This document shows positions 20,436 through 39,432 of a stretch of DNA of 64,000 nucleotides, one piece after another. The stretch is from assembly GCF_988243305.1 (NCBI RefSeq), contig NZ_OZ547136.1, one strand, 5' to 3'. Position numbers and translations under genes: made by a program. Within the stretch, counting starts at the first letter, position 1. Each line of letters begins with the position of its first letter. Below the pieces are notes generated by a model that made no database searches, was not told where the DNA came from, and saw nothing but the letters and a program-made list of their open reading frames with translations.

Positions 20436-20453
20436 GTGTATTATCGGCGCAGA

Positions 20454-20482: not shown

Positions 20483-20997
20483 CATTAACAGCAAAGACTT
20501 TCACTTCAGGTTAACGTTCTGGGGGGCGACTTTGAGCGTGTTGATAAGCTGAAATGAATTCTGGTTTAGATACTTTTACCAGGCATTTTTCGTCATAGCA
20601 CGCGACCAATGTAATGCCGCCAGCGCGGAGAGTTTTTTGCCTATCTTTTTCCAGCCATTCAACCTGTACAGGAGGTCTGGTGCCAATTTTGCGTATGAGG
20701 TTTAATCAACAATGGGCCAAAATTTGACTGACTGATTAACACCGAATATATTCTCCTGATTTTATTTTTTAGGGATAATATTAAAAATATAAGGTTAATC
20801 TTAATTAAATTTTTGGCTAATATTGTGTGTTGTTATTTTTTGTGGACGGCAAGCCGCAATGGCAAAATAGGTATGGTTGTAATAATCAAAACATGATACT
20901 AACTATATATAGATCGTTGAATTGTTGGCATGTAACTCGCTACAGCGAGTAGCGTTAGTAATGAAATATAATCAACATGGATAGGTGAAGATTAATT

Positions 20998-21684
20998 ATG
21001 AGCTTTATGGTTTTTGTAACTTGTTTGACAATTGCATTTGTCGCCGGTTTTGCTGTTGCCAGAAAATTGACACTCCGAAAAGTTGCCTCATCGGTAATCA
21101 TCACTAGATCGCAACCAGTCCCTTCCTCTGCAACTTCCCCTGCTGCTAAGGCGTCGACAAGGAGCTATACACCGCAGAAAACCTATCGTGACTCTCGTTG
21201 GCAAGAACGAGATGAGTTGTTCCAGGGAATGGTTGCCGAAGGTATTTTATTGGAAGGAAAAGAGTGGTTAATTACGCGTTGTGAAAAAATTTATTTTGAT
21301 AATCTGGAGAAATGGTTTGGACATTCTTGTCATATCCATTGCCAGGTCTCTCTGGGGCGCTTGATCAACTTTCCAGAACAACCCGAGTTTAGCGAAGAAG
21401 AAAGAAAGCGTTTCTTTGCAATTTATAATGGAATGGCAATGGATTATGTTCTGGTTTCAAAGAAGAACAATAAAATAGTCTGTGTTATTGAGCTGGATGA
21501 GCCGAGTCATGAAAGGGCAGATCGCATTATTCGTGACCGTTGGTTGAATACGATTATGACTATTGCACGGGTGCCTTTTGTACGAGCTTCTGTCACTAAA
21601 TTGGATGAAATCCCTCCGGTCTGGGATACCCGTGACAAAATTCGCCCATTAGCCGCGGCGACAAAGGGTGAACCGTTGCATTAA
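20998..21684 (+). CDS. Membrane-anchored DUF2726-like protein
   Basis: 228-aa ORF with N-terminal TM helix and a C-terminal region that I read as DUF2726-like (NFPEQPEF ... VIELDEPSHE); AT-rich promoter region upstream. Confidence 0.55.
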   Translation: MSFMVFVTCLTIAFVAGFAVARKLTLRKVASSVIITRSQPVPSSATSPAAKASTRSYTPQKTYRDSRWQERDELFQGMVAEGILLEGKEWLITRCEKIYFDNLEKWFGHSCHIHCQVSLGRLINFPEQPEFSEEERKRFFAIYNGMAMDYVLVSKKNNKIVCVIELDEPSHERADRIIRDRWLNTIMTIARVPFVRASVTKLDEIPPVWDTRDKIRPLAAATKGEPLH

Positions 21685-21691
21685 CTAAGTA

Positions 21692-21969
21692 CCCCGGTCA
21701 GGGCTTCTCATCTCCCCCGGTGTGTGCAATATACGAAAAAAAAGCCCGTACCTTCGTACGAGCTCTTCTTTAAAGATGGCGGTGAGGGGGGATTGACTCG
21801 CTTCGCTCGCCCTGCGGGCAGCCCGCTCACTGCGTTCACGGTCTGTCCAACTGGCTGTCGCCAGTTGTCGAACCCCGGTCGGGGCTTCTCATCCCCCTGT
21901 GTGTGCAATATACGAAAAAAAAGCCCGTACCTTCGTACGAGCTCTTCTTTAAAGATGGCGGTGAGGGGG
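21692..21969. repeat. Two ~99-bp near-identical direct repeats separated by ~81 bp
   Basis: Copies at ~21692–21790 and ~21872–21969; on the minus strand each carries a stem-loop followed by T8. Confidence 0.6.
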
Positions 21970-22129
21970 ACCGCCTGAAATAAATCTGACTTAATCCAGG
22001 GGTGTTATATAATTTCATTATAAACAATGTATTACACTTTTTGTTGTCCGATATTATCTAATGTATTCTTAGTGAAGCGAGAGACTAATGGCATACTGGA
22101 TGGCATACCAGAGTGACGGGAATTAGCGT

Positions 22130-23332
22130 ATGGCAGTATTGACGGATACGAAAGCAAGACATATCAAACCTGATGACAAACCATTGCCCCATGGGGGAAT
22201 TACCGGACTGACCCTTCATCCTTCTTCAGTAAAGGGGCGGGGGAAATGGGTTTTTCGTTATGTAAGTCCGGTGACACAAAAAAGACGTAATGCTGGATTG
22301 GGAACTTACCCAGAGGTCAGTATTGCTGAAGCTGCACGTACTGCCCGGATAATGCGAGAGCAACTTGCTGCAGGTGATGATCCTCTGGAGATTAAAAAGG
22401 CTGAATCTGAGAAAGTCGCTATCCCAACATTTGCCGATGCAGCCAGGCGTGTACATGCAGAACTGTCTCCTGGATGGGAAAATCCAAAGCATGTAAGGCA
22501 GTGGTTATCGACGCTTGAGAATTACGCGTTTCCTCAACTGGGAGCAAAAACGCTGGATTCGATTACGGCTGCGGACGTGGCAGAAACACTGCGTCCAGTC
22601 TGGTTAACCTTATCAGAAACGGCAAGCCGGGTTAAACAGCGCATTCATGTTGTTATGCAGTGGGGATGGGCGCACGGTTTTTGTGTAGCAAATCCTGTTG
22701 ATGTGGTTGACCATTTGCTTCCTCAGCAGACAAGAGGACGTGATGAACACCAACCCGCAATGCCCTGGAGGCAGTTACCGCTTTTTGTGGCGACCAGTGT
22801 GTATACCGATGAACCTTATAATGTTACCCGCGCACTGTTATTAATGGTGATACTTACAGCAACTCGCTCGGGCGAAGCCAGGGGAATGCGCTGGGCTGAA
22901 ATTGATTTTCATAAGCGGGTATGGACTATACCTGCAGAAAGAATGAAAGCTAGGCTACAGCATCGTGTTCCTTTATCCCGGCAGGCTATTTACATTCTGG
23001 AAAATATACGTGGCCTGCATGATGAACTGGTGTTCCCTTCACCCAGAAAGCAGCAGATCCTTTCCGATATGGTGTTGACAAGTTTTCTGCGTAAAAAGAA
23101 AGCCGTCAGTGACATTCCGGGGCGAGTTGCCACGGCACATGGTTTTCGCTCAACATTCAGGGACTGGTGTAGCGAACAGGGGTATTCGCGGGATCTGGCG
23201 GAAAGGGCGCTCGCTCATACGCTGAAAAATAAGGTTGAGGCGGCATATCATCGTACTGATCTACTGGAGCAGCGTGTACCGATGATGCAGGCATGGGCGG
23301 ATTATGTGATGTCTCAAATTGTGAATAAATAA
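22130..23332 (+). CDS. P4-type tyrosine integrase
   Basis: 400-aa ORF with arm-binding-type N-terminus and C-terminal catalytic region (HGFRSTF ... LAH ... Y) as in P4/CP4-57-type integrases. Confidence 0.85.
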   Translation: MAVLTDTKARHIKPDDKPLPHGGITGLTLHPSSVKGRGKWVFRYVSPVTQKRRNAGLGTYPEVSIAEAARTARIMREQLAAGDDPLEIKKAESEKVAIPTFADAARRVHAELSPGWENPKHVRQWLSTLENYAFPQLGAKTLDSITAADVAETLRPVWLTLSETASRVKQRIHVVMQWGWAHGFCVANPVDVVDHLLPQQTRGRDEHQPAMPWRQLPLFVATSVYTDEPYNVTRALLLMVILTATRSGEARGMRWAEIDFHKRVWTIPAERMKARLQHRVPLSRQAIYILENIRGLHDELVFPSPRKQQILSDMVLTSFLRKKKAVSDIPGRVATAHGFRSTFRDWCSEQGYSRDLAERALAHTLKNKVEAAYHRTDLLEQRVPMMQAWADYVMSQIVNK

Positions 23333-23518
23333 TAGTGAAAATGTATATTGTACGATCATGATTTGATATGTGATCGTAGCAGTAGTAATTAAGAAACCGC
23401 TTTTATGTCAAATGTATTGAGCTGATAATTATCAGATCGTCAGGAAAGCGTATTTTGATTAACAGGGGATTACTTAACAATCCCCTTTTTATAAAAAATA
23501 ATTTGCCTGTTTAACTCT

Positions 23519-25336
23519 TCACTCCTGCTGAGACTGAATTATTCCTAGTGCGTCATAAATCAGTCTTCTGCGTAGTTTATTGTTTTTATCTGCACCATAT
23601 AACATAAATATATTTTCAACTTTTTCTTCAGGTGTTCTGAGATAATGGATAAGAAAGGTTATCATTCCAACACAATGGAATAAAGTGAATCCATCAAACA
23701 GGCTTATCAGGTTTCCTTTTTTTTCCCGTGTTGTAAGTATTTTTTCGCGGGTAAGAATATTTGCCAGTTCATGGGGGGCTGATATGTTTCTGCTGTCTAT
23801 AATGTCATTTATTTTACCAAGGGCTATATCAACTTCCTGTAATAGGTTATTTATCATAGCTGAGTGAATGTTATTGGTTTCATGTTCCTGACAGTTTATG
23901 AACTTATAAATCATTGAGTTATACAGAAATATTACTCTTCCTAATAAATATGTGTTTGTGTCATTTTGAAGACAGGACTCTGGGTATTCGTGATCCAGTG
24001 AAATAAGGTTAATGGACTCGCCCTGATAAGTCATAAAATAATTGATGTCATTTAATAATGCTCGGATATTTACATGATTTTTACTGAATTTTATTTTAAA
24101 TGCTATCTTTAGTATAGCAAACGCGGCAATGATAAATCCAAAAGGTAATTTCTCATAGTTCAGTTTATTGATGGTGCGATGAACACTTTCAGTCTTTCCT
24201 GAAGTAAGTTGTCTCAAACAGTTAACAAATTCTGTATAGCCATTTAAGACATAATGGCATGAAGAATCTTTTAAAGAGTTTTCTATGTTTTGTAATGTGA
24301 CGCCGTTGTTCAATGTATAAATGTAACCGCCAAAGACAATGTTTTCAATCTCAACGACACAATTTATTGTTTTTTGTTCAGGATAAAGATAAATATCAGA
24401 AATACTATAGTCTCGTATTGCGTCAATGGCATCCCACGATAATGCACTGTCAATTTTCAGTGTATAAAATGGTGAGTTCTCATTAGGAAAGTAATATATG
24501 TATTTGTTCAGTATATTCATTACATCTATTGGGTTGGTTAAATATAATAACTGGCATTCATATTCTGAAACTTCTCTTTCGCTTATCAGCATTTTATATA
24601 AAGTTGCCAGGGTGCTTGTTAATGAAGTTCGTCTTTCGAAAGCCAGTAATATAGTGAGATAATAACATGCAACCTGAACTTTATCTAAGTCAGAAATTAT
24701 TTTTTCCTTGTCTTCATTACTTAAATAAAGCAGATGTTTACAGGTTTCTTTGCATGTGTTGATAGTTGCGATAAGTTTTGTTTTTCCTGGTGTACTGTTT
24801 TTGCGAATATTACGAATGAATTCATATACGCCATCAAAGATATCTTTGAAATGCGCATTCGCTGGCGTGTATCCGGATAAACATAACTTAACGTAATTTC
24901 GCAGATATGTCCTTGCAGCATGATATATATCATCCTCATTATCCGGTATCTGAGTGAGAAAAGAATGAATATGATAGTAAAATGCCATCTCATTATCCGG
25001 GCGATATGTGTTCCTGATGTCGAGTGCGAGAATCATTGGTACAATGTCATTAAAATATTTTTGTTTTATTATTTGATGTGTTTTGTCTGTAAAAACAGAA
25101 TAGTGCATTAGCTTAACATAGAGATCTTCATATCTCCTAAATATAACTTTTCGTTGTTCTTTACTCAATACTTGTTCTTTATCAATAATGTTTATTAATT
25201 CATCAAACATGTCGCCCAGTGAATGTTGATGTGAGGAAAAATTTTTAATATTTCGGATGTCACGGCTATTCTGGTTTTTAGCCAGAACACCAAAACATGA
25301 AAAGACATCATACATTATAGTGATAAAATTATACAT
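23519..25336 (-). CDS. Hypothetical 605-aa orphan protein, strongly AT-rich
   Basis: Long uninterrupted ORF with no motif I recognise, directly downstream of the integrase. Confidence 0.6.
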   Translation of the reverse strand: MYNFITIMYDVFSCFGVLAKNQNSRDIRNIKNFSSHQHSLGDMFDELINIIDKEQVLSKEQRKVIFRRYEDLYVKLMHYSVFTDKTHQIIKQKYFNDIVPMILALDIRNTYRPDNEMAFYYHIHSFLTQIPDNEDDIYHAARTYLRNYVKLCLSGYTPANAHFKDIFDGVYEFIRNIRKNSTPGKTKLIATINTCKETCKHLLYLSNEDKEKIISDLDKVQVACYYLTILLAFERRTSLTSTLATLYKMLISEREVSEYECQLLYLTNPIDVMNILNKYIYYFPNENSPFYTLKIDSALSWDAIDAIRDYSISDIYLYPEQKTINCVVEIENIVFGGYIYTLNNGVTLQNIENSLKDSSCHYVLNGYTEFVNCLRQLTSGKTESVHRTINKLNYEKLPFGFIIAAFAILKIAFKIKFSKNHVNIRALLNDINYFMTYQGESINLISLDHEYPESCLQNDTNTYLLGRVIFLYNSMIYKFINCQEHETNNIHSAMINNLLQEVDIALGKINDIIDSRNISAPHELANILTREKILTTREKKGNLISLFDGFTLFHCVGMITFLIHYLRTPEEKVENIFMLYGADKNNKLRRRLIYDALGIIQSQQE

Positions 25337-25476
25337 AACATTCTCCTTTTATTGCACTATATAAAATTTTAACATTATATCATTTTGCTTTTCTGTTAAC
25401 TGGTTTTCATTTTTGAATCAATATTTTCTGAACAGGGTAATAGTACACGTATTAACAGATTATGTCAGAAGGCCCC

Positions 25477-26239
25477 GGTGATGCCTTCTGACGATAGATT
25501 AATGTTGTATTCTATTGGTATCTGGAGACCATATGGCAACAGTTACAGTATATTCTCCCCGCTGTAATTCCTATAAAGTGTACCGTTATGATCACAGCAC
25601 CTCAGATCATGAGCGTTTCCAGTGCTAATCCTGCAAACGTGTATTTCAACTGAATTACATCTACGAAACCCGAAAACCAGGCATTAAAGAGCAAATTGTT
25701 GAAATGGTTCATAACGGAGCCGGGGGTCGCGATAGCTCCAGAACGCTGAAGGTGGATATCAACACCGTCATTCTCACTTTAAAAAACGCTCACCACGTAA
25801 AGTAACCATATCTCCAGCCGCCAGTGTCGATGTGGCACTTATCTGTGAACTTGATGAACAATGGAGTTTTGTCGAAAACAAAGCTCGTCAGCAGTGGCAC
25901 TGGTACGCGTATAAGACCAAAGCTGACGGTGTGCTGGCTTACACTTTTGGTCCTCGCACTGATGAAACATGCCGTGAGTTGCCGGAATTCCTGAAGCCAT
26001 TCTCCGCAGGCATGATAACCAGAGACAACCGGAGCAGTTATACCAGAGAAATGCCACAGGATAAGCATCTTGTCGGCAAGATATTTACCCGGCGCATTGA
26101 GCGCAACAATCTGACACTTCGTACTCACATCAAACGACCTGCCCGGAAAACGATTTGCTTTTTACGCTCCCTGGAAATTCACGAAAAGCCATTGGTTCAT
26201 TTATCGAAAACACATGTACTACTGACAGGAGTCATTACC
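25477..26239 (+). mobile_element. IS1-family element, divergent and degenerate
   Basis: IS1-like terminal inverted repeats (ggtgatgcc ... ggagtcattacc); InsA-like and InsB-like reading frames (ICELDEQW ... RIERNNL) broken by stop codons. Confidence 0.6.
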
Positions 26240-26435
26240 AGGGCCTCTTTTGCTGTTTTTTTGCCATGAATGATAATGAGAATCGACAGCGATAAGGGAA
26301 AAGTAAAATAACACTAATGCTGTCGTTTTCTATCATATTGATTTTTAATTATTTATTGTCTTTTTTCTCAACCCATTTTTTTACGCAGACAAATTTACCC
26401 GGGGAATACAAACTGTAACGACAGTTCACCACACT

Positions 26436-26744
26436 ATGGGGGATAAAATGCCAGATCAATCCGGACACTGCAGGACTCCTTCACGCATCTTACGGATGCC
26501 TGAACTGAGCCAATTGTTAGGTATATCTCGTTCGACAATTTACGAAAAAATGAATCCGTTATCGAAATACTACGATGCAACCTTCCCCAGGCCGGTACGT
26601 CTTGGTAGTGGTTCTGTGGGCTGGCGTTCATCAGCTATTGACGAATGGCTTACTTTACATACTGTACCTGCCAGATCAGCAGTCAAAGGTGTTAATGACG
26701 AAGTGAGACATACGCTTTCTTCAGATATGACCATGAGCAGATAA
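26436..26744 (+). CDS. AlpA-family phage/island transcriptional regulator
   Basis: MPELSQLLGISRSTIYEKMNP HTH typical of AlpA-like proteins; true start may be internal. Confidence 0.7.
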   Translation: MGDKMPDQSGHCRTPSRILRMPELSQLLGISRSTIYEKMNPLSKYYDATFPRPVRLGSGSVGWRSSAIDEWLTLHTVPARSAVKGVNDEVRHTLSSDMTMSR

Positions 26745-26852
26745 GTTTTTGTCATCACGTGATCACCTCAGGAGGAAAAAGAAGCATAAGAACAATTTAG
26801 CCAGAAGTTTAATTGATAAACAAAATTTCCAGCATTCATTGTTGAAAGAGCA

Positions 26853-26906
26853 GCTATTGTCGCTATTGTCGCTATTGTCGCTATTGTCGCTATTGTCGCT
26901 ATTGTA
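26853..26906. repeat. Tandem 9-bp repeat array (gctattgtc, six units, last degenerate)
   Basis: Directly visible; a related degenerate copy lies at ~27351–27394. Confidence 0.85.
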
Positions 26907-26937
26907 GCGGTAATTGCTGCTATAACCGAAACGTATT

Positions 26938-27204
26938 ATGAAAAAGGAAGCATTTATGCCTTACATCAAACCGGATATGCCGTATTCAGTATATGCATGA
27001 CCATCAATGATAGGGAAGGCAATAATTAAAGCTCAATACAATAAACAAGTACCTCTGACTCTGGTTGCAATGTCAGTATTAACAGCGATGTCAATTGCCT
27101 GTCAGAATCAGGTTGACGTATGCAGTCCCGGAAATTTACGTGGGGCCGTTAATATTTACACTATGGTTCTGGAGAAAGGGAAAAGACCGGGGGAAAGGTA
27201 TTAG
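26938..27204 (+). pseudogene. Degenerate partial duplicate of the YfjI-like gene N-terminus
   Basis: MKKEAFMPYIKP ... then ORF 27007..27204 (AIIKAQYNKQVPLTLVAMSVLTAMSIACQNQVDVCSPGNL) parallels residues 1–70 of the downstream gene, with a frame break. Confidence 0.55.
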
Positions 27205-27404
27205 TGAAATAATTTCCGGAGGTATTAAGAATGAGAAATATGAATGATATTTCGTGGTGAATAATACAGTCTTCACTGAATTAACCTTATCGGTTTATTA
27301 AACATCAGATCTACAAATGCTCTGTATTTCTCAGAGCATCAGGTCTGAATAGCAGCTATTTTCGCTATTGTAGCGGGATTTGCTGCTATTTTACTAACCC
27401 ATTA

Positions 27405-28856
27405 ATGAAAAGAGAGGCTTTTATGTGCTTACTTGCACCAGAAAATCCTTATCCGATATATGCACTACCACCGCTGGTGAGAAATGCAATAATTGAAACT
27501 CAAAAAAATACACAGGCACCTTTGGCTATGGTGGCAACATCCGCATTAACAGCGATCTCAATTGCCTGTCAGAATCAGATTGACGTGTGCAGACCTGGAA
27601 ATTTACATGGGCCTGTTAATCTTTACTCTCTGATTCTGGCTGATTCCGGTGAAAGGAAAACGACCGTGGATAAAGTGTTTATGAAAGCATTTTATCTCAG
27701 GGATGAAGCCCTGGCGGATGAATACGCGAAACTGGTTGAGAATTACAGTACAGAAAAGGAAATATGGGAGCAAAAACAAAAAGCGCTGGAATCAAAATTT
27801 CATAAAGAGATTCGTGCCGGTAAAGATTACAAGGCAACAGAATCAGAGCTTGAAACGCATCTGAATAAACCTCCTGTTCCGCCGCAGATACGTCGAACAA
27901 TTTTTAATGAGACAACGATAGAGGGAATGTTAAAATATTACTCCGATAGCAATCGCTCTTTTGCTCTTGTATCCAGTGAAGGGGGGGTAATTTTTGACAG
28001 CCGGGCCATGAGTAAACTGGGAATTATTAACACTTTGTGGGATGGAGGTTCTCTTTTCATCGACAGGAAATCATCTCCCGGAATTAATTTGAAGGAGCCA
28101 AGACTGACGATATCGGTGATGATTCAGCCTGATGTTTACCACAAAGGTTTTTGTACGCGAAAAAAAGAAATTGTGAAAACGTCAGGACATCATGCAAGGT
28201 TTTTGATGTGTCAACCAACATCAACGCAGGGGACAAGGATAATAACCGGAGATAATTATTCATCACAGTATCAGGATTTGTTTGAAGAGAGGATCAATGA
28301 GCTTATTGATGAAAGTCTGGCGATGAGTGGTGAACGACGTTGCCTTCACTTTTCTCCTCAGGCTGCCAGAATCTGGACGGATTATTACAATGATGTGGAA
28401 TCGAAGCTGGGGGGATTGGGGCCTTTAAGACATTGCCGGGAATATGCTGCTAAAAATGCAGAGTATATGGCAAGACTGGCAGGACTTATTTACCATTCGA
28501 GCGGTGAAGAGGGGGAGATTTCCCCTTACACTGCAGAAATGGCGAGAGAATTAGCAATATGGTACGGTAATGAGTATGTGCGGTTGTCTAATCCGTTAAC
28601 TTTTGACAACTCTGCCCTGACCGTACCTGTGCGACTCATTCCAGAGGAGCTTGAACTTTTCAACTGGATAAAAAGCTATTGTATTGAGAAGGGGATCCTC
28701 TGTATGAAAAAAAATGACATTTTACAGCGTGGTCCGAACCGTTTCCGGAAAAAGGATAAAATCAACTGGTTACTGGATTTACTGTATGAACAAAACAGAG
28801 TTGTACCGGTTATTGAGGGAAAAACGTTGTGTGTCGCACCTAACTTTGACCTCTGA
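27405..28856 (+). CDS. YfjI-like island protein (DUF3987-like)
   Basis: 483-aa ORF matching the YfjI family of CP4-57-type elements by recalled similarity and position after alpA. Confidence 0.7.
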   Translation: MKREAFMCLLAPENPYPIYALPPLVRNAIIETQKNTQAPLAMVATSALTAISIACQNQIDVCRPGNLHGPVNLYSLILADSGERKTTVDKVFMKAFYLRDEALADEYAKLVENYSTEKEIWEQKQKALESKFHKEIRAGKDYKATESELETHLNKPPVPPQIRRTIFNETTIEGMLKYYSDSNRSFALVSSEGGVIFDSRAMSKLGIINTLWDGGSLFIDRKSSPGINLKEPRLTISVMIQPDVYHKGFCTRKKEIVKTSGHHARFLMCQPTSTQGTRIITGDNYSSQYQDLFEERINELIDESLAMSGERRCLHFSPQAARIWTDYYNDVESKLGGLGPLRHCREYAAKNAEYMARLAGLIYHSSGEEGEISPYTAEMARELAIWYGNEYVRLSNPLTFDNSALTVPVRLIPEELELFNWIKSYCIEKGILCMKKNDILQRGPNRFRKKDKINWLLDLLYEQNRVVPVIEGKTLCVAPNFDL

Positions 28857-29676
28857 ACGACTTAATCGTTGAGTACATATAGTCTCCTCTGCTACTTGCG
28901 GAGGAGACTAATGTCTTTACCATGTCAGCGTTGTATTAGAAAACTCTGGTACAGGTCAGTCAGTAAATATAACTGGTGTAACCACTATTTACTATTGGAT
29001 AGAGTGTTGCTCAGGATATTGTCGGCTTTAGTCTGAGGTGAGGTGGGGCCTTCATTGTTTTCGTGTTCAATAAATAATTTAGGTTAATTAGTATTATTAG
29101 TGGAAGTTATGTGATCTGTTATGTTGTCTTGTACGCACTTAACACTGGTTACGTACCGGAACACTATTAGAGTATGTTATGGCTCTGTTACAGTTTATAG
29201 GTATGAAAAAATATAATCTTTCCTGTATGAAATAATATTCTTATGGTGTGTGGGGTATGGTCTGTATACCATCATTTTTATGGTGAAGTTAAATATCTGT
29301 AGAGGCCTTAAGCTGGGTCGCTGTTTTTACTTAATGGTACAGAAGTATTAATAGCGGTGTTGCCTGTGGCTACCCGATACTGGCTTTTGTGAATGTCAGA
29401 TTACTTCCTGTAAGTGATTGAATGGTACTTCCTTAAACTCAATTCTATGAGGTGTGTTTTTACCATTGTAATTCGTACTGGTCCTCAGTTTAAGTGAGTC
29501 TTACTGTACTCTGAAATATTACCTCTTTGGAGTAATGAGGTAATACGAAACAGTTTTATCAGGTTGTCTGTGCTGCTGGTTACCTCGTTTATTAATGCCG
29601 CGGTACGGCGTTTCTGTACTCTCAGTATTTATGTAATTCCACCTTCCTGTAACTTTTATAAAGTAAGGACTATAAA

Positions 29677-30240
29677 ATGTATAATGCTAATCCCAATTAC
29701 GAAATGGACTTCATGATTCTGAAAGACGTGAATGAACACATGGAAGGTCTGTTTCAACGTTTTTCTAAACTGTTACCTTTCAGAATTGATTTTGCCTACA
29801 GGAAAGACACGCCCAGTTTTGGTCATTCCTGTAGGCACAGTATGTGTATTGAAATGCACCGCTTACTTAGTGAAACCCAAACGATGCTGGCGGGATATTA
29901 CTGGGTAATGGAATATACGTCAAACAAGGGACTTCATATTCATTTTATCGGCTACTTGGATGGGCAACGTCACAAGAAATTTTATCGGATATCCAGGCAA
30001 CTGGGAGATATCTGGAGTCGGATCACGGAAGGGGAGGGTTATTTTCACCTGTGCAGTACTAAAGACAAATACTCGGTGCGTATCGATCACGTGATTCACT
30101 ATAGTGATAAGTCTGCGGTAGACGGTTTACGTTACGCCCTTAGCTACCTGGCTAAACAGGATCAGAAAGAACACGGTATTATTCTGGGCCGTAGCAGGCT
30201 TCCCGAAAAAAGCAACCGGGGCCGACCACGACATAACTGA
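29677..30240 (+). CDS. YfjJ/YagK-like protein (inovirus Gp2-type putative replication initiator)
   Basis: 187-aa ORF; family assignment from recalled similarity and position after the YfjI-like gene. Confidence 0.6.
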   Translation: MYNANPNYEMDFMILKDVNEHMEGLFQRFSKLLPFRIDFAYRKDTPSFGHSCRHSMCIEMHRLLSETQTMLAGYYWVMEYTSNKGLHIHFIGYLDGQRHKKFYRISRQLGDIWSRITEGEGYFHLCSTKDKYSVRIDHVIHYSDKSAVDGLRYALSYLAKQDQKEHGIILGRSRLPEKSNRGRPRHN

Positions 30241-30902
30241 ATTACAGTTGTATTAGGTATTAAAATTAAGTTTCTGTAAGTTGTTGGGAGGTGCTTGAGT
30301 TAATAGGCAGAAGAGGGCGGGGCGCTTTGTCATCAGTGTAGGGGACCCGAATTTCTGCCGTGGTACCTCAGTGGATCGGATACAGGTAACGAATATGGTT
30401 CATAAATCTGACAGTGATGAATTAGCTGCACTGAGGGCAAACATAACTTGAAGCTTATGGGATTGAATGGCGACGTAAACCGCAGAGTCCTGTGCAGTGC
30501 GTTTCCGTATTATCCACGGATGAGAAAGTTGCGTTATTTTGTCGACTGTTTCGCGGGCGTGATGATGTATGGGCCCTTCGATGGGAAAGCAAAACCAGCG
30601 GCAAATCAGGGTACTTGCGGGCCTGTGCTAACGAATGGCAGCCGGGAATAGCGGTAAACTCCGGATAAAATGTGGGGACTGCGCTCACCGTCAGTTGATC
30701 CCTGTATCTGATCTCATCATCTACCACTACACGGTTTAACGGGGCCGCGTCATCTCGGCGTTGCCCGATAAATTCTTTTCTACGTATAATAACCAGAATG
30801 AACGTGTAAAACACCATAGTATTCAGAACTATAAACATCGAAACCTGCCATATTGACCAGAATAAATGACCTTATTTTTACTGAAATTTAAGGAGAACAC
30901 CG

Positions 30903-33900
30903 TTGGAAGTAGAAATGTGGGATGGTGGCTTACAAGAACAGGAAGTATTGGCTATCGAGAAAATAAAAGCTGCTTTTTCAGTCAACGTATCTAAGCCTGA
31001 CAAGCCTTTCCGTAGCGGTTCAATTAGTGAGCAGCTAAAAAGCTATGGTTTTATCGGCAATGAAATGTTCCCTTGGAAAGGTTATGCAGGTTTTCGATTT
31101 GTTGAGGCAAAAAAAGAGGGGGAATTCGATTTAGTTATTGTAACACACTGCAACGTGATCATTGTTGAACTGAAAGACTGGAACCATCAGCCTGTAACCG
31201 CACGCGGAGATACTTGGTTTAAAGGCGATAAGAACATGGGGCGCTCGCCAGTAAGCGTGACTCGTAGCAAAAAATTCATGCTGGACAAAAAACTCAAGCG
31301 TCTGGTAGACCGTTTTACGAACAAAGGCTATATCCCGATTGTTCATTTTTTTGTTGTGATGACCGGCAATGCAGATTTCAGCGCGCTGCCGGAGGAACAA
31401 CGGCGCCATACGATCTCGTTAAAAGATTTCCTGAAGTTTGCCGATCGCGGGAGCTTCAATAACTATTTCAAACCGCACCCAGCTACCAAGGTTCTTAACA
31501 AGGATTTCCATCTTTTCGATGATTTGTTCCTAGGGCCTCAGACGGCACCAAAAGCCTTGAGAGTTAATGGCTATGAAGCTAATGATATGATTTTCGAACA
31601 TCCTAAAAAGGTGTATCGAGAATATCTGGCAAAATCTGAGATATCAACGAACAGCGAAGCGCTACTCAGAGTATGGAATTTTAGAAATATAACGGGAACG
31701 AAAGCGAATACCCCGGAAGGACGAGCTCAGATTGTTTCACGTGAGCGCGAAGTGTTACAGCACATCAATCACCAGAATCGTGACCTGTATAACCACTGTC
31801 TCAGGTCTTTGACGAGTTTTCAGAAAGACGAGGTGACGGCCGAGTATAGCGAAGTCTACGAAGTTCCGCCGGGTCATGTCCGGTTTAATGAGTTTATCGG
31901 AAAATATGGTAAGAACTTTTCTGATATGGACCGCTTGAATGTGGTGAAACTGCTCATTGCAAAGTTTAGTGATCTCCATGAGATGAAAATTGCGCACAGG
32001 GATGTCGCCGATCACAGTCTGTGGATTTCACCTTCAAAAGAAGTTGCTCTTTCGAACTTTATTTCGGCTTACCACCAGCCAGCCGGAACGGTTGGCGATT
32101 ACCGTAAGCTTTTATCCGTAGGTGCAGTCCACGTAAAAGACATGCTTGATAAGGGCGAGCTTACGCCTTTTCAGCAAGATGTTCATACTCTGGGCCTTGT
32201 CGCCTGGCACTTATTTAGCGGTATGCGCATGTCGCCAAAGAGTCTGGAGAAAGTACAGGACAACATGCTAAACAGCCAGCACTGGTATTCATCTGTATTA
32301 CGGGATGCCGTTGCCGCAAAATTCACTTCTGCAACAGAATTCTTTGATGCCCTGAAACAAGCCGAACCTGCTGGCAAGGATATTCCAACATTTGATGATA
32401 CTGAGCTTGACCCTTACCGACATGCTATCAATCACGCTCGTCAATACCCGGAAGACGATGGCTTTCAGTTTCAGGTCGAAACAGTCGACAAAGAAGTCTA
32501 TATCTCGAAAGGAAGGCTCGTGAAGGCTTGGCTGAATGTTGGGGGACAGGGATACGATCCGTCAATTAATTTCCAGGTTCTGAAGTTTTTAAAGCAGGTT
32601 GAGCGGCTTTCTTCAGTTAAAACAACGTATCTACCTCAAATTCGTGAATTCGGTATCGCATCAAAATCATCAAGCCTATATATGGTCACGGATCAGGTAC
32701 AGGGAGAAACCTGGGATAAAATAGCGGTCCCCGATGATGAAAAAATCGACCTCATTGGTAAGTTTGTCGCCGCCGTTGAGCACTTACATGGTCTGGGTGT
32801 TTCTCACGGGGACATCCACCCTGGCAATGTGATATTTGAGACACAGAGCCGTTTGCTTTTTCTCATCGATATCCCCGATTTTTCACCGTCCGGTGACGAA
32901 CCTAAAAATCACAGTTACAGCCCTGAATACATTGATAATTGTACTTCTTTTGAACGTGACAACTATGCAGTGATGAAGATGTCCTGCGAGTTGCTAGGCA
33001 TGTCATGGGGGCTGGAATCAGACATTTATCCGACAATCGCGAATGCTATCCGAGCAGAGCTGGAAGATCCGGTTTTTGGGTTTAAGGATTTAGGCCGCTT
33101 TAAAAAAGCGATAGATAGTAATGACCTGGTGCCAGAACAAGACCTGATAGAGATTACTGCAGGAAATGCCGATGAAATAATCTCTATTCTGCCTGATAAC
33201 GGGCATCTGTATGTCAAAGTTAAGTCAAATCCTAAAGCGCCAGCTGAAGTAAATGTGACTTTCTCTGGGATTGGTGGCAGTTTTACTGCGGTGTTCAACA
33301 AAGATCAGAAGACGCTGGTTCATGGCTTCAGGCCACGGGCTCGCGTCACAATTCGTAAGCAAGATATTGATGAAAGCCAGTTCGAAATTGATACTGGCAT
33401 CAAGATTATTCCCGGCAGTCCGCAGGATCTGTCGGCGTTGACAGTATTGCTTAATGAAGAAGAATCTTTTGCGCGGGCAATCGAGTTGATTGCCGCAACT
33501 GAAGATGTTCAGGTACAAGAGCCACTTACGCTTCAGCTAAAAGATACCTTTGCAAGGCTTGATAAGCAGACGCTTGAACCTTCTTTAAGAGAAGTGCTGG
33601 AAATCCCAACAGTGAAACTGTGGCGCGCCATTCTGGATACTGAAACAGAATCTTATCCAAACATTGAAATCAGCGGTGAAGTGGTCCCGGTTGCAGATGC
33701 TCATGGAGAGCTTCTTCTCCCTTACTCTGCTGATGTTGATCCACTCGGTGCTTTCAGAAGTAGTGATGAAGTCGAAGCCTTACAGGTCGATCAGGAAGGT
33801 GTTGAGCGATTTATTGGTGAAGTGTCACTTAAGAAGTCAGAGCTCAAAGAGATTCGTCTTGTCAAAGTTAGTTCAGCAGCCTTCAAGCTGAAGGATTCTG

Positions 33901-35873
33901 ATATTGTCTTCTTCCGTACAAGGCCGACTCGTGCATCTTATCAGAAACGTAAACGCGCACTGGAACGTCTCCTAGATCGAGAAAGTGTGCTGCCTGACTT
34001 AATTGACTTGTTCGATCCATCCTGCAAACAGGCGGCTCAAAATTATGGTATCACTCTCAGCGATACCGATTTTGCCAGATACGACCGTGAAGATCAGCAC
34101 GGAAACAAGATCAGTCTGAATGAACAGCAAAGAAAGGCGTTTAACAAACTGGTCAATAATGGCCCTCTCTCCCTGCTTCAGGGGCCACCGGGGACCGGTA
34201 AAACCGAGTTCATCGCGGCCTTTGTTCACTACCTGATCGAGAAACAGAATACCAAACGCATTTTACTGGTCAGCCAGTCACACGAGGCTGTGAATACAGC
34301 GGCCGAGCGTATCAGAAAGCATTGTTCCCGGCTTGGTACAGAGTTGGACGTTGTCAGGTTCAGCAACCGAGAGGGAGCCGTTTCCCCTGGCTTAAAAGAT
34401 GTGTACTCACACGCAATCACAACAGAGAAGCGCGAACTCTTCAATGCTGAAATTAAGTACCGTGTTGAAGCATTGAGTGAAGCTATTGGTCTGGAGCCGG
34501 GATTTATTTCGGGTGTTGTTCTTGCAGAGCTCAATTTGTTCAGACAAATCGATCACCTTGAGAAATTGCTCTATCAGGTTAACAATTTAACGGATTCAAA
34601 TGAGAGCAATGAACTGAAAGATATTGCAGTCGAACTCGATTTTTCCATCCGCTCTAAGCTGAGTCAGGAGTATGGGATTAACTTGGACAATGGCGTGAAG
34701 GTCTCAGCAGCAAAAGACATTCTGATTTCCAAGCTATGTACAGAGTATGGTGTCAGACCTGATGAGGCAAGACGAGTAAAAGCATTAGCTAAAATATCCC
34801 GTGATATGCAGGATGCTATGTCGGGAGAGCGAGTGAACCTGGACGAGTTTTATTCGCGCTCCAGGCAGTTAGTGGCTGGCACATGCGTTGGTATTGGACA
34901 AGGGCACATTGGCATTCAGGAGAATATCTATGACTGGGTGATTATTGATGAGGCGGCGCGCTCGATTTCAAGTGAGCTGGCCATTGCAATGCAGTCAGCC
35001 CGGCGTGTCCTGTTGGTGGGTGACCACATGCAGCTTCCTCCATTGTACTCAGATGCCCACAAGGCGGCATTAGCGAGGAAGCTGGGTATCAATAACTCCC
35101 GCACTGAAATTGACGAGGTATTACGAAGTGACTTTGCCCGAGCCTTCAACTCTGCTTATGGTGCGCAGACGAGTGCAGCTTTGATGACCCAGTATCGTAT
35201 GGCTCCACCGATTGGTAATCTCGTATCGAAGACGTTTTATGACGGGAAGCTTCTGAATGGAGTACGGGCAATTCCGGATGTCTATCAGCAAGCTCCGGAA
35301 GCGTTACGTAGCGTTGTAACCTGGCTTGATACTGCTAATCAGGGCCACCGAGCACATCATCTTGAAGATCGCGGAACAAGCATTTACAACCGATGTGAAG
35401 CTGACGAGATTATTTCTGTTCTTAAACAGGTGTCAGAGAATGAAGAATTTGTCGCTAAGCTTTCAAAACTTGTTAGCAAAGATGAAGCCGCTATCGGCGT
35501 GATATGTATGTATGCCGAACAAAAGCGGTTACTCCGTCAGAAATTCAATCAGGAAATCTGGAGCGAGGGATTTAAGGACATTGTTAAAATTGACACTGTT
35601 GACAGTTATCAGGGAAAGGAAAATCGGATCATTATCCTGTCACTGACGCGTTCGGATAAGCAGCATAGCCCAGGTTTCTTACGCGTTCCAAACCGTATAA
35701 ATGTCGCGATGTCACGCGCAATGGATCGACTGTTGATTGTGGGTAATGCCGATATCTGGAAGGGAAACAATAAAGAATTGCCATTAGGCTACGTTGTAAG
35801 TTATATGGCTGAGCGAGGTCAGGAAGCTGGATACAGGTTCCTCTCTGCTCAGCAGGGAGGCAAAAAGAAATGA
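30903..35873 (+). CDS. Giant multidomain protein: NERD-like nuclease region, two protein-kinase-like regions, UPF1-like SF1 helicase (candidate defence effector)
   Basis: 1656-aa ORF; aggaga SD 6 nt before the TTG start (alternative ATG at 30915); FDLVIVTHCNVIIVELKDW; IAHRDVADHSLWI and VSHGDIHPGNVIF...LIDIPDF; helicase motifs GPPGTGKT, VIIDEAARS, LLVGDHMQLPP, VDSYQGKE, RINVAMSRA. Confidence 0.8.
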   Translation: MEVEMWDGGLQEQEVLAIEKIKAAFSVNVSKPDKPFRSGSISEQLKSYGFIGNEMFPWKGYAGFRFVEAKKEGEFDLVIVTHCNVIIVELKDWNHQPVTARGDTWFKGDKNMGRSPVSVTRSKKFMLDKKLKRLVDRFTNKGYIPIVHFFVVMTGNADFSALPEEQRRHTISLKDFLKFADRGSFNNYFKPHPATKVLNKDFHLFDDLFLGPQTAPKALRVNGYEANDMIFEHPKKVYREYLAKSEISTNSEALLRVWNFRNITGTKANTPEGRAQIVSREREVLQHINHQNRDLYNHCLRSLTSFQKDEVTAEYSEVYEVPPGHVRFNEFIGKYGKNFSDMDRLNVVKLLIAKFSDLHEMKIAHRDVADHSLWISPSKEVALSNFISAYHQPAGTVGDYRKLLSVGAVHVKDMLDKGELTPFQQDVHTLGLVAWHLFSGMRMSPKSLEKVQDNMLNSQHWYSSVLRDAVAAKFTSATEFFDALKQAEPAGKDIPTFDDTELDPYRHAINHARQYPEDDGFQFQVETVDKEVYISKGRLVKAWLNVGGQGYDPSINFQVLKFLKQVERLSSVKTTYLPQIREFGIASKSSSLYMVTDQVQGETWDKIAVPDDEKIDLIGKFVAAVEHLHGLGVSHGDIHPGNVIFETQSRLLFLIDIPDFSPSGDEPKNHSYSPEYIDNCTSFERDNYAVMKMSCELLGMSWGLESDIYPTIANAIRAELEDPVFGFKDLGRFKKAIDSNDLVPEQDLIEITAGNADEIISILPDNGHLYVKVKSNPKAPAEVNVTFSGIGGSFTAVFNKDQKTLVHGFRPRARVTIRKQDIDESQFEIDTGIKIIPGSPQDLSALTVLLNEEESFARAIELIAATEDVQVQEPLTLQLKDTFARLDKQTLEPSLREVLEIPTVKLWRAILDTETESYPNIEISGEVVPVADAHGELLLPYSADVDPLGAFRSSDEVEALQVDQEGVERFIGEVSLKKSELKEIRLVKVSSAAFKLKDSDIVFFRTRPTRASYQKRKRALERLLDRESVLPDLIDLFDPSCKQAAQNYGITLSDTDFARYDREDQHGNKISLNEQQRKAFNKLVNNGPLSLLQGPPGTGKTEFIAAFVHYLIEKQNTKRILLVSQSHEAVNTAAERIRKHCSRLGTELDVVRFSNREGAVSPGLKDVYSHAITTEKRELFNAEIKYRVEALSEAIGLEPGFISGVVLAELNLFRQIDHLEKLLYQVNNLTDSNESNELKDIAVELDFSIRSKLSQEYGINLDNGVKVSAAKDILISKLCTEYGVRPDEARRVKALAKISRDMQDAMSGERVNLDEFYSRSRQLVAGTCVGIGQGHIGIQENIYDWVIIDEAARSISSELAIAMQSARRVLLVGDHMQLPPLYSDAHKAALARKLGINNSRTEIDEVLRSDFARAFNSAYGAQTSAALMTQYRMAPPIGNLVSKTFYDGKLLNGVRAIPDVYQQAPEALRSVVTWLDTANQGHRAHHLEDRGTSIYNRCEADEIISVLKQVSENEEFVAKLSKLVSKDEAAIGVICMYAEQKRLLRQKFNQEIWSEGFKDIVKIDTVDSYQGKENRIIILSLTRSDKQHSPGFLRVPNRINVAMSRAMDRLLIVGNADIWKGNNKELPLGYVVSYMAERGQEAGYRFLSAQQGGKKK

Positions 35874-37306
35874 TATCTGATAACAAAGTTACCTATCATG
35901 AGGTTGACTTCCTGCTGCCAGCACAGAGGTTTAACATTCAGTTTTCCTATGTTTCCCAGAAGGGGCTGCCATTTATCCGGGAGTTTGTGCTGAGACTTGT
36001 TCATGTAGCTTCGATGAGCAAAGCACAAATAGCAACCTATTTCGGCCTGACCCACCGTGAGACAGAGGAGGCGATTTCCGATCTTGTGCAGCGTGGCGAA
36101 TTGACGCTCTCCTCAGACGGCAGACTGGCCTTAACAGACAAATCAAATGGCTATTTTTCAGAGGTTGGCGAGATACCGCATCTTTCAACTATTCAGGACA
36201 GTGGCTGTACCTTATCCTTTGATTTAGCCACATTTAGTTGCTTCAGCAACCAGGCTTTTCAGGACCACTGGAGGGGAGGGGTAACATTAAAGGTTGATGA
36301 CAACAACATTTCTCAAAGTGAGAAACTGGTTGAGAAGCACTTTCAATACCAGTTTAATCAAATCCTGGATAAAGGTTACCTGTCTCACCTGCAGGTTCAG
36401 GTCGGAAAAGAACAACCTTCTATCTATACCGTTAATTCTGTTAATAAGCTGCGGCAAATACCACTCCGTTTAACAACGGAATTTAAAATGGATAGCGATG
36501 GTAAGGCTGTCGAGCGTGAAGACTATGAACAGTTAAATAGTTCGGAATGTGTTCATGAGTTAATGGCTGTTGAGATAGCCAGGTTATCACGGCATAACAA
36601 TACCATGAGTATTTTTAAGGCCATGCAATCCATTAACGATGACCTTACGCTTAAGCTGTTTGACTCTAAAACGAATCGACTTAATCCGTTGTTTATCAAA
36701 GATATGCAAGCACTGGAAGAATACTCGTCCTCAGGCAGAACGACTTTTTTAGGTCCGGTTTATTCTAAAAACAACTGGGAAAAGCTGCAGAAAGCTCTGG
36801 CACCAGCGCTCAATCAGCGTATCAGAGATAAAACTGATTATGGAGGTAGCCCGTTCATCTGGGTGGCACCATCAGATCCCTACTGGTCAAAAAGCATTCG
36901 ATTTATCTCAAGCCTGAGCAATTTTCTTAGCAAGTCGGCTACGAAGGATAAGCAGCTGTATAAACCGGTGCTGTACGTACCTGTCCGGGATGCAGCTGAT
37001 GCTCGGGTTGCCAGACAGTGGAAGTATGAACTTGGGCAATTCCATGAGTACGCTAAAGGACTAGTTGAGGGGCTGTTAGATGGTAATGTTGAGATCCTTC
37101 ATCTTGAGGATGAGTTATCTGCCGTTATCTATCATATTTCTCAACCCGAAATATTGCCTGTAACGATGCCACTGGGCTTTATCACAACGAACAAAGAAAC
37201 GGTTAAGATTATTGGTACTCTGGTTACTGAATATATCAAAGGCACCACTGGTTTTGATAAGTTTCATGACTGTGGCGCAATTTCGGCAATGATTAAGAAA
37301 GGTTGA
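35870..37306 (+). CDS. Hypothetical 478-aa partner protein with possible N-terminal winged-helix region
   Basis: Start overlaps the upstream stop (ATGA); no PLD HxK(x)4D motif seen. Confidence 0.7.
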
Positions 37307-37461
37307 GCTGTTGGAACAGGAGGTATGGGGCATGTTTGCGTATTTTTATGGAAAGAAATAACCCAATGACGGCGTTACTCTCCAACTGGGTTGACGCGTG
37401 CTGCCTGTTAATGGCTCCGCTGAATGATGCCCTATACCGTTATGTGATGAACACCCGCCTG

Positions 37462-37720
37462 GGAACCATCCACGGCACGTCGGTCGGCGAACTGCTGGCG
37501 TGGATCAAAGAAGATGAAAACCCTCGCAAAGGCGAGATGGTGCTGATTATTGAAGGCCATAAAGCCCAGGATGACGAACTGCCCGCCGATGCGCTGCGTA
37601 CGCTGGCGCTGTTGTAGGCTGAGCTGCCGTTGAAGCAAGCGGCGGCGTTGGCGGCAGAAATCCACGGAGTGAAGAAGAATGCGTTGTATAAGTATGCGCT
37701 GGAACAGCAGGGGGAATAAG
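37462..37720 (+). pseudogene. 3'-terminal fragment of an rsmI-like gene with an in-frame stop
   Basis: ...[77 protein letters not shown] resembles the recalled RsmI C-terminus; upstream part of ORF 37303..37617 is unrelated. Confidence 0.55.
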
Positions 37721-38218
37721 CCCCTGCTGCCGGTTTTGCCGGGTGGCGCTTGCGCCTTACCCGGTCTGCTCATTGGGACAAGCGTTTAGTTAACGGGCAC
37801 CGCCTCAAACACCAGCGTTTCCAGCGGCTGCAACGTAATCACCGTCGCGTTTTTATACTCAACGGGCACGGTTTTATTGCTGCCGTATACCGCTTTCAGA
37901 CTAAACTGCGCCACGTCTCCTGTCGGTATTTCGAAATCCTTAGCCAAATCCAGATAGTAGGCCTGTGGCTTATCCGATGGGTTGCGCAAACCGAGAATGG
38001 CTTTGTCTTTGCTCCAGGATGCCCAGCCGTACACGGCAAGCGCCGTTGGGTCGCCGCCAATCCAGTGGGTATCAACCAGCACGCTGGCATTTTCCTTCGA
38101 CCATTTTGCAGCCTTCGCCAGCGTATCCCACTTCACCTTGTTCAGCATGGACGGGGTAATATACTGAACCGCCCCGGGAATCCTGGAGACTAAACTTCCT
38201 GAGAAAGAGGTAAACAGG

Positions 38219-38545
38219 ATGACTAAAAATACTCGTTTTTCCCCCGAAGTCCGTCAACGGGCAGTCCGTATGGTTCTGGAAAGTCAGAGCGAATATGACT
38301 CACAATGGGCGACAATTTGTTCCATTGCTCCAAAGATTGGCTGTACGCCGGAGACTCTGCGTGTCTGGGTTCGCCAGCATGAGCGGGATACCGGGGGCGG
38401 TGATGGAGGGCTCACCACCGCTGAACGTCAGCGTCTGAAAGAGCTGGAACGTGAAAATCGTGAACTGCGCCGCAGTAACGATATCCTTCGCCAGGCTTCC
38501 GCTTATTTTGCGAAGGCGGAGTTCGACCGCCTCTGGAAAAAATGA
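38219..38545 (+). CDS. IS3-family transposase OrfA (copy 1)
   Basis: 108-aa HTH/leucine-zipper OrfA ([19 protein letters not shown]...). Confidence 0.85.
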
Positions 38546-39432
38546 TGCCACTGCTGGATAAGCTGCGTGAGCAGTACGGGGTCGGACCGCTATGCAGCGA
38601 ACTGCATATTGCCCCGTCAACGTATTACCACTGTCAGCAACAGCGACATCATCCGGATAAACGCAGTGCCCGTGCGCAGCGCGATGACTGGCTGAAGAAA
38701 GAGATACAGCGCGTATACGATGAAAATCACAAGGTATACGGTGTGCGTAAAGTCTGGCGTCAGTTGTTACGGGAAGGTATCAGAGTGGCCAGATGCACTG
38801 TGGCACGTCTCATGGCGGTTATGGGACTTGCCGGTGTTCTCCGGGGTAAAAAGGTCCGTACGACCATCAGCCGGAAAGCCGTTGCCGCAGGCGACCGCGT
38901 AAACCGTCAGTTCGTGGCAGAACGACCTGACCAGCTGTGGGTGGCTGATTTTACTTACGTCAGCACATGGCGGGGCTTCGTCTATGTGGCGTTCATCATT
39001 GATGTGTTTGCCGGATACATCGTGGGGTGGCGGGTCTCATCGTCCATGGAAACGACATTCGTGCTGGATGCACTGGAGCAGGCGTTATGGGCCCGTCGAC
39101 CGTCCGGCACGGTCCATCACAGTGATAAAGGTTCTCAGTATGTATCGCTGGCCTACACACAGCGGCTTAAGGAAGCCGGATTACTGGCATCAACAGGAAG
39201 TACAGGCGACTCGTATGACAACGCGATGGCGGAGAGCATCAATGGTCTTTACAAAGCGGAGGTAATACACCGTAAGAGCTGGAAAAACCGTGCAGAAGTG
39301 GAACTGGCCACACTCACGTGGGTGGACTGGTATAACAATCGACGATTGCTGGAAAGGCTGGGCCATACTCCTCCGGCAGAAGCAGAAAAAGCTTATTATG
39401 CTTCCATCGGAAACGATGATCTGGCAGCCTGA
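38542..39432 (+). CDS. IS3-family transposase OrfB, DDE integrase core (copy 1)
   Basis: 296-aa ORF overlapping orfA, typical programmed-frameshift arrangement. Confidence 0.85.

Follow-up and report, generated by a model that had tools for sequence, protein, structure and literature searches.

The locus analysed here raises the question of what is encoded by the 478-aa gene that directly follows a large helicase gene in the window, the 64,000-nucleotide stretch of contig NZ_OZ547136.1 under study. If the large protein were a Mokosh-type helicase, its neighbour would be expected to be a PLD nuclease, and the preliminary description, having found no HxK(x)4D motif and an N-terminus resembling a winged helix, suggested a sensor, a regulator or a new effector. 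The absence of the motif was borne out, as no HxK tripeptide occurs anywhere in the protein. We found, however, that the gene is mkoB and encodes the partner subunit of Mokosh type I, an anti-phage system of E. coli that has already been validated. It represents a known system in a little-described variant rather than a new one, since the PLD motif is absent but a degenerate form of the PLD fold is predicted to be retained C-terminally. The earlier interpretation was thus borne out in part. The best explanation overall, to which we assign a probability of about 80%, is a long-form Mokosh MkoB whose PLD domain is degenerate and which acts as the nucleic-acid-binding partner of MkoA.

The gene pair is arranged as follows.

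30915..35873, + strand: mkoA, long form of 1652 aa, start codon ATG at 30915 (PADLOC, RefSeq)
35853..35873, + strand: translational coupling signal, read directly from the sequence
35870..37306, + strand: mkoB, short form, 478 aa (PADLOC match)

MkoA (RefSeq WP_001333439.1; its mechanical open reading frame begins earlier, at a TTG at 30903) matched PADLOC PDLC03921 over residues 1-1652 (E=0, 2212 bits), and MkoB matched PDLC03923 over residues 3-472 of 478 (E 1.9e-151). A GGGAGG Shine-Dalgarno sequence lies within the 3' end of mkoA, whose stop codon shares ATGA with the mkoB start (4 nt overlap); at distant loci the two genes likewise overlap by 1-4 nt or lie no more than 16 nt apart. Co-occurrence of the two genes, proposed earlier as a check, was confirmed, the pair being co-inherited in constant order down to about 18% identity. 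An open reading frame at 37303-37617 was considered as a third gene and rejected, as it had no PADLOC match and RefSeq annotates only pseudogene fragments there. Of 5,426 complete E. coli genomes, about 300 carry the system, and short MkoB relatives form about 380 clusters at 50% identity; these proteins, including the MkoB studied here (WP_000622487.1), are currently named 'hypothetical protein' or 'Uncharacterized protein'.

The locus has the features of Mokosh type I in that the MkoA profile match comes with an Upf1-like COG1112 SF1 helicase and a Ser/Thr-kinase-like region, and the gene with the MkoB profile match is adjacent to mkoA. The HxK(x)4D PLD nuclease that the main text of Millman et al. 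2022 (10.1101/2022.05.11.491447) ascribes generically to type I MkoB was not found. In contrast to that main text, Table S2 of the same work labels the MkoB of E. coli SEC470 'HTH' only and nevertheless lists the SEC470 type I system (SG199; Tables S2 and S8) as 'verified' for phage defence, so that HxK(x)4D is in practice not a membership criterion. SG199 agrees with the window in its two genes, their order and their lengths (MkoA 1652 aa, MkoB 478 aa); it comes from another strain and differs by a few amino-acid substitutions. Compared over residues 1-399, MkoB is 98.2% and MkoA 92.5% identical. Phage protection has been reported for this 98% (MkoB) and 92% (MkoA) identical system, and the window allele may share it. 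HIDEN-SEQ has described how DNA glucosylation and ADP-ribosylation by Alt allow evasion of a UPEC Mokosh type I system (10.1101/2025.11.20.689424). The primers used to clone that system do not occur in the window, which makes it a different locus, possibly of a different subtype, and its results were not transferred here.

The MkoB polypeptide divides into three regions, the last of which carries a remnant of the HKD motif.

35891..36169, + strand: beta-hairpin and winged helix-turn-helix (residues 8-100)
36185..36586, + strand: middle region (residues 106-239), conserved in sequence, pLDDT below 50
36587..37303, + strand: single domain of predicted PLD-superfamily fold (residues 240-478)
37091..37186, + strand: degenerate HKD segment, from column counts over 98 diverse members

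We are very confident of the mkoB identity and of this architecture. The winged helix proper spans residues 33-100, in line with the fold named in the preliminary description; the peptide quoted there as the N-terminus corresponds instead to residues 49-78, which cover helix 2, recognition helix 3 and the beginning of the wing. The middle region was modelled with pLDDT below 50 in the first full-length AlphaFold model. The canonical type I MkoB ('HTH-PLD', E. coli ETEC H10407 type, about 600 aa) shares with the short form the N-terminal beta-hairpin, the winged helix and the middle region, as well as a C-terminal PLD fold and a position directly downstream of a kinase-helicase MkoA. Its profile, PDLC03922, reaches residues 12-248 of the short MkoB, including the middle region (PADLOC E 1.2e-13), while hhalign of the two families (E 3e-4) aligns only the N-terminal 120 residues. 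Judged by these alignments, the beta-hairpin and winged helix share homology with the canonical N-terminus.

The C-terminal half behaved differently. Searches of Pfam, NCBIfam and the PDB with MkoB, by sequence and by profile, gave nothing beyond weak winged-helix matches; Pfam PLDc matched none of 93 family members; the C-terminal domain found no match in a profile search of PDB sequences, and its hhalign probability against either HKD domain of canonical MkoB was below 3%. Faint W-to-W and 'GxxE...H' resemblances to the canonical HKD domains were therefore not taken as evidence. Foldseek against AFDB50 returned only the short-MkoB family itself, all uncharacterised. The predicted structure of the domain, in contrast, was very confident (pLDDT 96, pTM 0.92, with none of the five models below 93), and the top 27 consecutive matches in a structure comparison all belonged to the PLD superfamily before other folds appeared. 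Thus, the lack of a PLD signature noted at the outset holds at the sequence level, whereas the modelled domain does match the PLD superfamily. The assignment rests on predicted structure, as there is no detectable sequence-level homology to canonical PLD domains, and one could argue that it is an artefact of prediction and that the C-terminal half is a new fold or another class of nuclease, in which case the 'new effector' would stand. We consider this very improbable, given the confidence of the model, the agreement of an independent full-length model that yielded the same structural matches, the unbroken run of matches within one superfamily, and the order strand-loop-strand-helix together with the His/Gly/[ST] spacing, both of which reproduce the HKD layout. 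We conclude that the domain has, as modelled, the alpha/beta PLD sandwich fold in degenerate form.

What is left of the active site was assessed by conservation counts over 98 diverse short-MkoB members. E408 is kept in all 98; position 422, preceded by Y421, is His in 83 and Tyr in 10; P434 is kept in 96, G436 in 97 and [TS]439 in 97. The offsets of H422, G436 and [TS]439 (+0, +14 and +17) equal the spacing of H-x-K-x4-D-x6-G-[ST]-x-N, and this spacing together with the topology suggests that H422 is equivalent to the catalytic His. Conservation does not extend to Lys, Asp and Asn: Lys stands at +2 in 11 of the 98, and [ST] takes the place of Asn at +17. The two distant members with a full HxK(x)4D at the H422 column, P0145 and P0160, lie in one small clade that has 'GF.T' instead of 'GSxN', too weak a basis for an ancestral HKD motif, and that argument was dropped. 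Canonical MkoB, on the other hand, matches Pfam PLDc_2 and carries two complete motifs, H368-x-K370...D375...G386-S-x-N389 and H554-x-K556...D561...S569-x-N571, while the short form has a single PLD-like domain per chain, with neither profile-level similarity nor the Lys, Asp and Asn; a catalytic HKD site (H-x-K-x4-D-x6-G-[ST]-x-N, in two copies per active site) is thus not present. The single-domain HKD nucleases Nuc, NucT and Zucchini/PLD6 (PDB 1bys, 6ehi, 4gel, 4ggj) also have the full HxK(x)4D...GSxN, of which MkoB retains just the His and Gly positions. The HKD motif has been termed invariant (10.1101/2025.07.10.664194). It is highly probable that the MkoB module is not a canonical HKD nuclease.

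Whether the module has lost catalysis altogether is an even call. E408 is strictly conserved and H422 nearly so, which suggests a working site. In characterised HKD enzymes the scissile phosphate is bound by Lys and Asn. Short MkoB could still be the nuclease effector, as an active divergent phosphodiesterase that forms a homodimer like Nuc or Zucchini, with H422 as the nucleophile and with E408 and the conserved W331, W339 and [RK]341 standing in for the HKD Lys, Asn and Asp. The conservation just described speaks for such an enzyme, but the phosphate-binding Lys and Asn are absent, Tyr replaces the His in about 10% of members, no member is detected by any PLD profile, and proteins that are not enzymes (TrmBL2, TrmB and FAM83A/B) are among the highest-scoring structural matches; we regard it as unlikely, though a serious contender.

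The same structural neighbours bring in another possibility, namely that MkoB is a TrmB-like transcription factor that regulates the operon or host genes from outside the defence machinery. TrmB and TrmBL2 (PDB 3qph, 2f5t, 5bpd), regulators from archaea, combine a winged helix with a C-terminal domain that is PLD-like, but they are 11-18% identical to MkoB, a profile search of PDB sequences found no sequence homology between them, and neither the query nor 93 members matched the TrmB-type winged helix (PF01978) or the TrmB C-terminal domain (PF11495) in Pfam. Unlike MkoB, TrmB proteins act alone, as regulators or as chromatin proteins, with no helicase partner, whereas mkoB is translationally coupled downstream of mkoA, neither divergent nor upstream, and is co-inherited with it in fixed order as described above. 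Moreover, one short-MkoB family member is fused to a dsRNA-binding domain, and the N-terminal half of MkoB shares homology with the canonical protein, whose PLD active site is reportedly needed for defence in a Mokosh system (Millman et al. 2022, 10.1101/2022.05.11.491447). A regulator of this kind is very improbable. The FAM83 DUF1669 pseudo-PLD domains (PDB 5lzk, 4urj) are 5-8% identical to MkoB and belong to eukaryotic signalling proteins without a nucleic-acid or helicase connection.

For MkoB as partner of MkoA, the domains of the latter come into view, in the order NERD, two kinase-like regions and helicase.

31071..31319, + strand: NERD (nuclease-related, PD-(D/E)xK-like), MkoA residues 53-135 (Pfam PF08378, E 8.4e-7)
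31722..32885, + strand: two kinase-like regions, MkoA residues 270-447 and 577-657 (Pfam Pkinase, E 0.024 and 8.5e-6)
34059..35819, + strand: Upf1/IGHMBP2-like SF1 helicase core (TIGR00376 IGHMBP2 family, E 6e-50)

The helicase core, also matched by PADLOC MkoA and MkoC, has Walker A GPPGTGKT at 34182-34205, DEAA at 34947 (motif II) and GDHMQLPP at 35019 (motif III). The kinase-like regions, with HRD at 361 in the first and HGDxxxxN at 631 in the second, also match NCBIfam MAD6 and PglW kinase and PADLOC PglW and PD-T4-6. NERD combines its Pfam match with a conserved D...ExK, in the form E70-F-D72...E85-L-K87 (nt 31122-31175), and ExD...ELK is invariant across five long MkoAs of 28-47% identity. 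Short MkoB always lies downstream of a long, NERD-bearing MkoA, and canonical double-HKD MkoB downstream of a short MkoA (about 1150-1230 aa) without NERD. Replacement of PLD by NERD is, however, no clean rule, since one canonical locus has a separate NERD and zinc-ribbon gene just upstream of its short MkoA while its MkoB retains PLDc_2, so that NERD and an active PLD can co-occur.

We propose that MkoB binds MkoA and that its winged helix and PLD-like groove would contribute nucleic-acid recognition. The PLD module may serve in binding or regulation without catalysis, like those of TrmB, TrmBL2 and FAM83, or it may be a phosphodiesterase of altered chemistry that needs dimerisation. The hydrolytic step, carried out by the two HKD motifs in canonical MkoB, would here most plausibly fall to the NERD of long MkoA. 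This would amount to an effector swap within one defence family, in which the HKD site decays to a His/Glu-containing binding or regulatory module and MkoA acquires a NERD effector. That NERD is the compensating nuclease is a tentative proposal; still more speculative is that short MkoB is a natural pseudo-PLD with its effector role swapped to NERD or, alternatively, that the E408/H422 pair is an undescribed catalytic PLD variant.

The common description of Mokosh is 'RNA helicase plus PLD nuclease', a bacterial analogue of the MOV10L1/Zucchini piRNA pair (10.1101/2022.05.11.491447, 10.1101/2025.07.10.664194). Purification of the type I complex did not succeed in one study (10.1101/2025.07.10.664194). 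The system is already known, and its PLD-degenerate MkoB branch is under-described; as the HKD motif is missing from one of the two type I systems verified by experiment, the common description fails for a whole branch, and mechanistic work on type I Mokosh should not presume that MkoB is a nuclease. WP_000622487.1 and its relatives in about 380 clusters can be renamed MkoB (wHTH plus PLD-like domain), and the long-form branch offers a clean genetic test of whether the effector is NERD, one of the kinase-like regions or a PLD site that has been re-wired.

The gene under study is a real open reading frame:

35870-37306, + strand, mkoB, 478 aa (RefSeq WP_000622487.1, 'hypothetical protein')

Its ATG overlaps the stop codon of the 1652-aa upstream gene, mkoA (ATGA), and is preceded by a GGGAGG Shine-Dalgarno sequence, an arrangement typical of translational coupling; the two genes are translationally coupled. 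Against PADLOC profiles, the large protein matched MkoA (PDLC03921, E=0) end to end, and it carries a NERD domain (residues 53-135, E 8.4e-7), two kinase-like regions and Upf1-like helicase motifs; the preliminary description had reasoned from the supposition of a Mokosh-type helicase. The 478-aa protein matched the MkoB profile PDLC03923 over residues 3-472 (E 1.9e-151), while the second MkoB profile, PDLC03922 (610 positions), matched only its residues 12-248. In Table S2 of Millman et al. 2022 (10.1101/2022.05.11.491447) two E. coli systems of type I Mokosh are entered as verified: SG202 of ETEC H10407, with an MkoA of 1215 aa and an MkoB of 602 aa labelled 'HTH-PLD', and SG199 of SEC470, with an MkoA of 1652 aa and an MkoB of 478 aa labelled 'HTH'. 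Over the 399 residues printed in that table, the MkoB and MkoA of the window are 98.2% and 92.5% identical to SG199; thus the locus is almost a copy of a system validated by experiment. A nearly identical pair defends against phage. We conclude that the pair is type I Mokosh by every criterion in actual use, namely profiles, adjacency and a validated near-identical homologue; this MkoB nevertheless does not fit the textbook line 'MkoB is an HKD nuclease'. Since the system and the 'HTH-only' label have both been published, the finding is already known, and an MkoB without a recognisable PLD is implicit in the 'HTH' label, although the text of the same paper (10.1101/2022.05.11.491447) and later papers term type I MkoB a PLD nuclease.

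The window contains an E. coli genomic island, bordered by an integrase on one side and the malX region on the other, with a G+C of 35-47% against ~52-57% in the flanks. The fall from ~52-57% to 35-47% over 20000-38000 agrees with the entire integrase-to-Mokosh block having been acquired horizontally. Many chromosomes of human-associated E. coli match 30000-38500 at 99.8-100% identity, and 298 of 5,426 complete genomes contain at least 80% of this interval. Upstream of mkoA lie:

27405-28856, YfjI-family gene
29677-30240, inovirus-type Gp2 gene
30396-30731, just upstream of mkoA, frameshifted fragment annotated in RefSeq as 'TOTE conflict system archaeo-eukaryotic primase domain-containing protein'

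Together they resemble what is left of a mobile element, P4-like or satellite-type, that carries the defence genes. Downstream of mkoB, 37303-38200 holds only pseudogene scraps, which RefSeq gives as one hypothetical fragment and one of a 16S rRNA methyltransferase, and a mechanical ORF at 37303-37617, overlapping the mkoB stop, had no PADLOC match. Identity to most genomes stops at ~38165, beyond which the window appears to diverge, with ORFs at 38219-39432 that are probably IS3-type. In E. coli E686 (NZ_CP049198.1) an IS3 element has inserted into the same mkoA, whose two parts are annotated as pseudogenes, a 'NERD domain-containing protein' and a 'DEAD/DEAH box helicase'; mkoB itself is intact. 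The strain is a natural case of a Mokosh system being inactivated.

The preliminary description had found no HxK(x)4D in the 478-aa product, and indeed the protein has no H-x-K tripeptide, hence no HxK(x)4D, and no G[ST]xN. A missing HxK in one protein is weak evidence alone, as only ~0.9 is expected by chance; absence of the motif is, however, a property of the family. A chance HxK(x)4D occurred in one of 120 close homologues, at a non-conserved site, and the motif sat at the conserved His column in 2 of 98 diverse full-length relatives. None of 93 relatives matched a Pfam PLD family, whereas PF13091 PLDc_2 was found in every relative of canonical MkoB listed; the canonical form has two complete HKD motifs, the MkoB of the window one degenerate PLD domain. 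It is highly probable that this module is not a canonical HKD nuclease.

In the structure model the C-terminal half of the partner still has a PLD fold, degenerate but with a conserved His and Glu. Proteins listed for the C-terminal half include FAM83A, phosphatidylserine synthase, BfiI, polyphosphate kinase, SauUSI, NgoAVII, PLD4, Tdp1 and MITD1, among others, and TrmB, TrmBL2 and FAM83 are among the best structural matches of the predicted module. Its predicted secondary-structure order is beta-alpha-beta-alpha-beta-alpha-beta-beta-beta-beta-alpha-beta-alpha, in which H422 would end one strand and P434-x-G436-F-x-T439 would form the next, followed by a helix; in the model this is the HKD motif layout. 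Conservation among 98 diverse members was as follows:

W331, 97/98
W339, 95/98
E408, 98/98
H422, 83/98 (Tyr in 10)
P434, 96/98
G436, 97/98
[TS]439, 97/98

The H, G and [TS] at +0, +14 and +17 fall exactly on the His, Gly and Asn positions of H-x-K-x4-D-x6-G-[ST]-x-N, and spacing and predicted topology together suggest that H422 occupies the catalytic His position. Every sequence method tried failed to detect the PLD relationship. We consider a prediction artefact very improbable, and would call the domain a single, degenerate PLD domain that has diverged strongly. Lys at +2 occurs in only 11 of 98 members, and the Asp position is not conserved. An active divergent PLD, which would make use of the retained His, we regard as doubtful.

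MkoB combines a PLD fold devoid of HKD chemistry with a winged helix. The preliminary description was right about the winged helix, but the peptide it quoted as the N-terminus spans residues 49-78; residues 1-48 are conserved and predicted to form a beta-hairpin. The middle region (residues 106-239, window 36185-36586) is well conserved, e.g. F158, Q159, Q161, F162, Y186 and R200, and by profile is common to canonical MkoB; it has an AlphaFold pLDDT <50 and no family match, and may be the MkoA-binding part.

The short-MkoB family comprises ~380 clusters at 50% identity (E <1e-3), its AlphaFold-DB relatives all being named 'Uncharacterized protein'. Co-occurrence across genomes, a check named in the preliminary description, revealed a co-inherited pair: each distant homologue with enough context (P0145, 26% identity; P0187, 21%; P0264 and P0196, ~18-19%) directly follows a NERD/kinase/AAA_11/AAA_12 protein of 1622-1675 aa, and two of these loci lie in a defence island or adjoin a type I restriction gene. 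The ExD...ELK motif of the MkoA NERD is invariant across five orthologues at 28-47% identity. Canonical PLDc_2 MkoBs at three loci are preceded by MkoAs of 1153-1231 aa without NERD, and the N-terminus of H10407 MkoA has no NERD either, which divides the systems into long NERD-bearing MkoA with short degenerate-PLD MkoB (5/5 loci) and short MkoA with double-HKD MkoB (4/4 loci). As a caveat to this split, a canonical P. aeruginosa type I locus (L010, short MkoA and PLDc_2 MkoB) has, 95 nt upstream of its mkoA, a separate 256-aa NERD + Zn_ribbon_Top1 gene (L010:1415-2185), so that NERD may recur as a Mokosh accessory, fused or separate. P0196 (997 aa, L008:7001-9994) carries, in a C-terminal extension of ~540 residues after the PLD-like domain, two dsRNA-binding motifs (Pfam dsrm, E 7e-11 and 4e-9); UniProt A0A7C9G4N5 is a further case, and a UniProt relative is named 'DRBM domain-containing protein'. 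This fusion suggests double-stranded RNA or a hybrid as ligand of at least part of the family. The helical stretch before each motif has the faint look of a decayed RNase III domain, which Pfam did not detect.

We put the identity and architecture proposed here at about 0.9. As partner subunit of MkoA, MkoB would bind nucleic acid. Its PLD module would be either non-catalytic, serving in binding or regulation, a role for which TrmB, TrmBL2 and FAM83 would be precedents and to which we give an even chance, or a re-wired phosphodiesterase that would need to dimerise as Nuc and Zucchini do. That MkoB is a mere TrmB-like regulator we think very improbable, given its coupling to and co-inheritance with mkoA. 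The hydrolytic step may have been handed to the NERD domain, found only in this MkoA branch, a compensation we propose tentatively.

To the published picture these results make two modest additions: the PLD that seemed to be 'missing' survives as a degenerate fold in which a His and a Glu are conserved, and this degenerate PLD covaries with NERD in MkoA. An effector swap or a new catalytic variant in short-form MkoB seems to us rather unlikely; if either were true, the finding would gain in interest.
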